From an uncultured Alphaproteobacteria bacterium (GTDB lineage Bacteria > Pseudomonadota > Alphaproteobacteria > CAAHEQ01 > UBA3637), in the NCBI GenBank assembly GCA_949286245.1, contig CASECF010000039.1, positions 6,469 through 70,468 on the forward strand: 64,000 nucleotides of DNA, read 5' to 3'. A model generated the notes under the pieces. It did not search any database. It was not told the origin of the DNA and was given only the letters and a program-made list of their open reading frames with translations. The position numbers were made by a program, and so were the translations under genes. Shown here one piece after another: positions 27,152-28,132 of the stretch; positions within the stretch are counted from its first letter, which is position 1, and each line of letters begins with the position of its first letter.

Positions 27152-28132
27152 ATGATGGGATGGGAGAGAAATAATATGATACAGAAAGACCAATATACAT
27201 TAAATGAACAGTTGAAAGAAGAATTGGATTCTGCTAGTAGGTGTTTTTGCTCATTCAAGGTGCAGAAGATCTATAACTTGATGAACGAGGGAGCAGATGT
27301 AAATGTTAAAAATAGTGAGGGTGATCCACTCTTAATAAAAGCAATTAAATGGGATGATACAGTGCTTGCATATACTGTTTTAGACAAAAAACCTGATTTA
27401 AATACCACAGATAGAAATGGTCAAACAGCGTTGAGAGTTGCACTGGAAATGGGAAACTGGAGTATAGTTAATTATCTTATAGATGCCGGTGCGAATGTGA
27501 GTATTCAAGATAAAGAGGGGATTTCACCTCTGCATTGAGTGTCTTCACATTGTTGGAATTTGAAAGTATTGGAAAAAATGTTATCGTCTCCGACTGTAAA
27601 GATGGATCTGAAAGATAATAAAGGGTGGACTCCTTTGATGATAGCAATTAAACATGGGAATAGGGATGGGGCGAAGTTATTTATTTCAAAGGGTGCGAAT
27701 TTAAGTATAAAAAATCCCGATGGTGAATCGGTATTAACGATGGCTGTTAAGAGAGGATATTCAGATATTATTCAATCGTTAATAGAATCTGAATCTGATT
27801 TAACGATTGAAGAGGGAAAGAAGGTAATGAATATGATTATGTCTACCCCAGATTTAGATAATCAAGATGTTTTGGAAGCAAAGATAAGAGAAAAAATCAT
27901 TCCTCAAATATCTCAGATAGAATATGATCAGATCATTGATCCTAGAAAAAATAGAATGATTTATAATGACTTATTAGCACTTGGGTGTTTGGGACAAGTT
28001 TTGGAGCATCCCTCAATAGATGATTATGAAAAATTGAAAACGGTGTATAAAGAATTATCTTCTTATATAACTCAACATCAGAAAAAAATACAAAATGTAT
28101 TTGCTCGAAAGGTGGCTGGATTTTCTCGATAA
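27152..28132 (+). pseudogene. Ankyrin-repeat gene with shared C-module, interrupted by an in-frame TGA at 27536-27538
   Basis: ORFs 27152-27538 and 27539-28132 are in the same frame; the stop falls exactly at the Leu of the ANK consensus TPLH-L-AA (reads SPLH*VSS); downstream part keeps the C-module IEYDQIIDPRKNRMIYNDLLALGCLGQVLEHPSIDDYEKLKTVYKEL. Confidence 0.6.

Follow-up and report, generated by a model that had tools for sequence, protein, structure and literature searches.

Ank effector families combine variable N-terminal ankyrin repeats with a short C-terminal helical module, and they are large families with many degraded copies. In Wolbachia, ankyrin genes differ between strains through premature stops, frameshifts and insertion elements, as exemplified by WD0766 and pk2, and their ankyrin part is strongly strain-variable (PMC3287509, PMC3431249). 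The 64-kb stretch of DNA analyzed here (hereafter, the window) resembles this system in that it harbors ankyrin genes of a host-associated alphaproteobacterium whose orthologues range, depending on the strain, from intact to truncated by a premature stop or interrupted by a repeat or insertion element. In contrast with the Wolbachia genes, which are scattered or prophage-borne, those in the window form a single head-to-tail array of 35 kb, carry a different, lineage-restricted C-terminal module and belong to an uncultured alphaproteobacterium, whose sources include a chicken faecal metagenome. The likeness to the Ank proteins of Orientia, Wolbachia and poxviruses that bear F-box-like or PRANC domains is one of architecture only, and membership in these families is unsupported; unlike PRANC and F-box Ank effectors, the genes in the window end in a module with neither a Pfam hit nor a significant PDB fold match.

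The array comprises approximately 24 ankyrin-repeat paralogues, all on the + strand from ~16 kb to ~54 kb of the window, and is flanked by housekeeping genes, with tolB, ruvAB, dnaB and uvrC on one side and dxs on the other. Its host is an uncultured gut-associated alphaproteobacterium. The window is 100% identical to Logan contigs of ERR10610642 and to the ENA contig ERZ17292905, and its closest named DnaB relatives are alphaproteobacterial metagenome-assembled genomes (MAGs) with identities of at most 85%. Related strains are represented by SRR7683044, a chicken faecal metagenome (PMC7469296), with a dnaB identity to the window of 98.8%, by SRR9850996 and SRR9850984 (98.2%) and by the MAG 'uncultured Alphaproteobacteria bacterium BRZ_FB bin41' (ERZ24773320, also ERR4096375), which shows ~87-96% identity across the array. 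This MAG was the sole match in a scan of a genome collection with P0029, one of the intact orthologues discussed below, and a search of a plasmid collection returned no match.

Twenty-four of the array genes end in a shared C-terminal module of ~72 aa, with all copies located within 18043-51640 (e.g. 27917-28126 and 21747-21965). The predicted model of this C-module is confident (pLDDT 86) and composed of five helices, no PDB structure matches its fold significantly, and none of 23 copies presents a Pfam hit, PRANC and F-box included, even at E <= 1; on these grounds, its assignment to a PRANC or F-box-like domain was rejected. Of 1.84 billion representative proteins, only 18 were recovered in a search with its profile, and most of these have lengths that match array genes of the window lineage. 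The C-module is a lineage-restricted orphan domain without a Pfam family.

Two genes of the array, designated here as gene 1 and gene 2, carry the in-frame stop codons that motivated this study. The preliminary description had proposed that each gene is split by a single stop with an intact reading frame downstream, and had listed very recent pseudogenisation, sequencing error and programmed read-through as possible explanations. We estimate at roughly 0.88 the probability that the two stops represent ordinary loss-of-function mutations within a tandem ankyrin array that turns over rapidly, where nonsense mutation, indels, insertion of a repeat element and allele replacement are all represented as routes of turnover. 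Turnover of this kind has ample precedent among the ankyrin genes of intracellular bacteria. The four ORF fragments flanking the two stops are in the same frame within each gene, and all four score above the Pfam gathering thresholds for Ank, Ank_2, Ank_4 and Ank_5. For annotation purposes, the appropriate label for gene 1 in this strain would be pseudogene or split gene, while gene 2 would be entered as a pseudogene with the boundaries 51811-53177. Of greater interest than the two stops themselves is the array around them, which combines an orphan C-module, mosaic alleles and a small repeat element.

Ungapped alignment to intact orthologues delimits gene 1 (27176..28132, + strand) as an ankyrin-repeat gene with a C-module and one nonsense codon, starting at an ATG common to all intact orthologues (MIQKDQ...). 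The nonsense codon is, as previously noted, a TGA at 27536..27538 on the + strand (ATT TCA CCT CTG CAT TGA GTG TCT TCA), and it is in frame with 27152/27176..28132. When the translation of gene 1 with the stop read through was used as a query, it retrieved the intact 318-aa proteins P0001, P0029 and P0030, with P0001 covering 98% of the translation. The orthologues reside in four syntenic loci (L008, L010, L011 and L012) from three related strains (SRR7683044, ERZ24773320/ERR4096375 and SRR9850996), in each case following the same pair of 338-aa and 327-aa genes. The five alleles align over 957 nt with 0 gaps, and where the window has TGA, each of the other four loci has TGT (Cys). Since the four other loci have TGT, the stop is explained by one mutational step, a single transversion from TGT to TGA that converted a Cys codon into a stop in the window strain alone. 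The site maps to the helix that follows SPLH in an ankyrin repeat; it had been equated with the conserved Leu of the repeat motif, an assignment that does not hold, as the orthologues all encode Cys at this position.

The 594 nt located 3' of the TGA contain two window-specific substitutions (one synonymous and one non-synonymous), no indel and no further stop, and the dN/dS of the C-terminal half of the gene is 0.37-0.52, with pairs involving the window allele included. The C-module of gene 1 (27917..28126, + strand; ~72 aa, helical, pLDDT 86) is intact and scores 83.9 bits (E = 1.7e-27) against an HMM built from array paralogues, for which intact copies score 66-102 bits, in agreement with its initial description as well conserved. 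The stop can be regarded as recent, given that the reading frame has stayed open over the 594 nt that follow and that their sequence has hardly changed. Taken together, these comparisons support the interpretation of gene 1 as a recent, strain-specific nonsense pseudogene or split gene, with a predicted loss of the full-length protein. The expected products would be an N-terminal fragment of 120 aa that consists of ankyrin repeats only and, at best, a C-terminal fragment made by inefficient re-initiation. Two scans of JGI metagenomes, one using the window allele with any third codon base and the other an invariant downstream 34-mer, yielded no match.

The TGA of gene 1 is located at the 3' edge of a diverged allele tract (27016..27556, + strand; 81-88% identity) that takes in the 5' region together with the N-terminal half of the gene, which encodes ankyrin repeats. 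This tract shows ~84% identity to the other strains, compared to 99-100% in the flanks (with respect to the sister strain), and contains no indel. Within the coding N-terminal half (27176-27559), the window allele is an outlier among the alleles, with 54 window-private substitutions (10 synonymous and 44 non-synonymous) and 0 indels, and dN/dS in this half is ~1 even between intact alleles. No donor paralogue for the N-terminal half was detected in the window, the fetched loci or the protein database, where the orthologues remained the best matches at 84%; gene conversion from a sampled paralogue was rejected, as no paralogue match exceeded that value. Smaller mosaic patches are also apparent in the vicinity of gene 1 in comparisons with L008, L010 and L012 (27816-27915, 28216-28315 and 28816-28905).

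A dN/dS of ~1 could mean that the N-terminal half was already non-functional in the donor lineage, in which case the term 'recent' would apply only to the history of this strain. Simulations in which all 54 substitutions are neutral predict 2.6-3.3 stops, compared to the one observed (P(<=1) = 0.15-0.25), a difference compatible with either state of the donor allele. The absence of indels argues that the donor allele was functional for most of its divergence. The simplest reading combines a fast-evolving ankyrin surface, a divergent N-terminal allele that would have entered the window strain by homologous recombination from an unsampled lineage, and a nonsense change that would have arisen inside this acquired allele. 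The outlier allele and the mosaic patches suggest that unsampled lineages recombine frequently with this one, that the ankyrin surface is under diversifying selection (dN/dS ~1), or both.

Genome-wide reassignment of TGA (genetic code 4 or 25) or of TAG would turn both stops into sense codons, and nothing beyond the two in-frame stops themselves speaks for it. Such a reassignment is excluded for all practical purposes by the fact that, among 50 genes in the window, 9 terminate in TGA and 10 in TAG, conserved housekeeping genes included. The genes ending in TGA include tolB, uvrC and 19563..21278, whose terminal codon at 21276-21278 had already been put forward as evidence that TGA acts as a stop elsewhere and that its genome-wide recoding is unlikely; both points are upheld. 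The products of the TGA- or TAG-ended genes tolB, uvrC and ruvA match their family models to their ends, with coverage of the TolB and UvrC models extending to the ends of the proteins. The same 50 genes contain 136 TGG codons, and no in-frame TGA or TAG is present in the housekeeping genes of the window.

The TGA of gene 1 might alternatively be recoded on its own, through selenocysteine insertion or programmed or leaky read-through, such that production of the full-length protein continues. Among the stop codons of bacteria, UGA is generally the most prone to leakage. The pairing of the in-frame TGA with Cys in the orthologues, as seen in bacterial selenoprotein genes, is the classical signature of selenocysteine, and no stop interrupts the frame beyond the TGA, where the C-module is well preserved. 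In contrast with selenoprotein genes, however, gene 1 lacks a SECIS-like structure, its TGA occupies a structural position in an ankyrin helix rather than a catalytic Cys or redox center, and neither tRNA-Sec nor other Sec machinery was found in the 64-kb window. The 81 nt starting at the TGA have a minimum free energy of -13.8 kcal/mol (z = -0.23), and 71 of 200 shuffled sequences fold at least as well. Rfam searches for a SECIS or any other RNA after the TGA gave only noise (E <= 10), and the sole match for the whole window at the gathering threshold was a tRNA-Met. Furthermore, the downstream sequence is identical in the strains carrying TGT, which means that nothing has co-evolved with the TGA, and TGA serves as a normal terminator in genes of the window. 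Programmed read-through predicts a conserved stop, yet the TGA of gene 1 is absent from all three other strains and the TAG of gene 2 is one of ten lesions. With no conserved stop, no downstream structure and many accompanying lesions in gene 2, the earlier suggestion of programmed read-through finds no support, and recoding of the gene 1 TGA in any form is very improbable.

It is also conceivable that the mutation has generated a functional split, in which an ankyrin-only N-terminal fragment and a re-initiated fragment with ankyrin repeats and the C-module are both kept by selection. A GTG at 27539 directly follows the TGA and an ATG is found 13 codons further on, at 27578; gene callers predict a 184-aa product (P0002) from this region, and array members with few ankyrin repeats occur naturally, as illustrated by the 218-aa product of 21330..21986. 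Inspection of the sequence, however, reveals no convincing Shine-Dalgarno element at the right distance from either GTG 27539 or ATG 27578, and the split is seen in one strain only, with no sign of retention. A cut through an ankyrin repeat would moreover destabilise both fragments, given the way in which ankyrin repeats fold. We therefore consider a selectively maintained split very unlikely. There is likewise only a slim chance that the locus still yields a useful product by any of these routes (leaky read-through of UGA, selenocysteine insertion or a re-initiated fragment), with nonsense mutations and allele-swapping recombination operating as an on/off or dosage switch at the population level. 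If it were so, the switch would act on individual genes of an effector-like family that had not been described before and whose C-terminal domain is an orphan.

Gene 2 presents a markedly different picture from the inactivation of gene 1 by one recent nonsense mutation. The TAG at 52230..52232 is indeed located in the frame of 51846..52601 (GAA AAC GGA TAG AAA AGA), and the full footprint of the gene extends over 51811..53177 on the + strand. A search with the repaired translation identified its intact orthologue P0036, a 353-aa protein with a complete C-module that is encoded at a syntenic position in the BRZ_FB bin41 MAG (L016, 6001-7062), with 87.6% nucleotide identity over aligned columns. 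Relative to the gene encoding P0036, gene 2 has accumulated ten lesions, of which five are nonsense codons, three are frameshifting deletions and two are insertions, of 66 bp and 245 bp.

In the order of the + strand, these lesions begin with a TAA at 51832..51834 (CAG in L016) and a 4-bp deletion just after 51841, which together remove the ancestral N-terminus of the protein, and continue with the TAG at 52230..52232, where L016 and L014 have TGG (Trp) and L013, from SRR7683044, also has TAG. They are followed by the 66-bp insertion (52311..52376), which is in frame, AT-rich, absent in L016 and disruptive of an ankyrin repeat, by a TGA at 52599..52601 (TGG in L016) and by the 245-bp insertion of a repeat element (52634..52878), also absent in L016. 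The remaining lesions are a 1-bp deletion at ~52970, a TAA at 52987 and another at 53125 (both CAA in L016), and a second 1-bp deletion at ~53158, with the bases missing at the three deletions all present in L016. The TGA at 52599-52601 had been taken as the end of the gene, and comparison with L016 reveals it as a TGG-to-TGA nonsense codon in its own right. Beyond the inserted repeat, a decayed C-module can be recognized at 52874..53061 (+ strand) in two frames, split by the deletion at ~52970; the C-module fragment previously reported at about 52893 corresponds to this remnant and thus belongs to gene 2. By alignment, the ORF pair at 51846..52601 is the best-preserved middle portion of a dead gene. 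The initial proposal of a very recent pseudogenisation by one stop, with an intact downstream frame, is accordingly borne out for gene 1, which has intact TGT orthologues and shows little decay. It does not extend to gene 2, which is a pseudogene as well, but an old one with multiple lesions.

The lesions in gene 2 also vary between strains. L013 shares the TAA at 51832, the 4-bp deletion and the TAG with the window, whereas L014 (SRR9850996) has an intact N-terminus, retains the TGG and is shifted out of frame by a 5-bp duplication; the 66-bp insertion is common to the window, L013 and L014, as far as the contigs reach. The occurrence of different lesions in different lineages indicates neutral decay, and the comparison supports the view of gene 2 as an old, multi-lesion pseudogene whose damage differs between strains. 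In the likely order of events, the 66-bp insertion into the ankyrin repeat would have come first, followed by independent lesions in separate strains: the TAA, 4-bp deletion, TAG, TGA, repeat-element insertion and 1-bp deletions in the window lineage, and the 5-bp duplication in the other strain. Given the number of lesions, the TAG is just one scar among many.

The strain comparisons also bear on the possibility of a sequencing or assembly error, in which the true base at 27538, at 52231 or at both would give a sense codon and leave the genes intact. The window comes from a metagenome-assembled genome, coverage of a related MAG contig is only ~4x, and the TGA of gene 1 is one base away from the TGT of its orthologues, all of which would be compatible with an error. 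The Logan k-mer assembly of ERR10610642 is nonetheless identical over 4.5-4.8 kb around both sites; the Logan contig may share reads with the deposited assembly, in which case this concordance would reflect an independent assembler rather than an independent sample. For gene 1, the N-terminal fragment ending at the TGA is found on two contigs and the C-terminal fragment starting after it on three. For gene 2, the TAG recurs in a different sample (SRR7683044), and a one-base correction would not rescue a gene with nine other lesions. An error at either position is thus unlikely, and the comparison of orthologues across strains that had been called for, with gene 1 intact and bearing TGT elsewhere and gene 2 intact in L016, favors genuine inactivating mutations in both genes.

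The element inserted in gene 2 belongs to a small family of repeats that measure ~190-245 bp and are bounded by terminal inverted repeats of 7 bp (ATTATGA...TCATAAT). The window harbors three copies that are 88-92% identical (15743-15964 and 52634-52878 on the + strand, and 54407-54632 on the - strand), of which one lies at each outer edge of the array and one inside the gene 2 pseudogene. A partial copy is present in L010 (676-830). The element has no match in Rfam and looks like a MITE.

The gene content of the array varies between lineages, as evidenced by differences with respect to L010 at 17414-18691, 21253-21753 and 28143-29132. Two window genes, of 256 aa and 292 aa, are missing from the BRZ_FB bin41 MAG together with a portion of the 218-aa gene, and this MAG has an additional 170-aa gene (P0046). 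An exact look-up of the 292-aa neighbour protein gave no match, while other neighbours were found. The 327-aa ankyrin gene at 26107-27090 is kept in all strains without a full C-module; its short terminal tail, KKLFKVRKIQNVVSQKWKSF, shows similarity to no part of the module other than the last helix and has possibly originated by internal deletion.

Other decay products are scattered through the array. A decayed C-module remnant with in-frame stops (18510-18683; 25.8 bits) is located between the genes at 17494..18264 and 18800..19525. The remnant reported earlier at 47763 is likewise real, and corresponds to the start (MFFDV...) of an N-terminal stub at 47748-47924 that overlaps the end of 46127..47761 and comprises neither an ankyrin nor a C-module part. 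The sequence of this stub (MRGNKMFFDVMEIFQKK...) resembles the starts of the subfamily formed by the genes beginning at 41675, 43302, 44707 and 46127, and the stub is a remnant of a lost member of the array.
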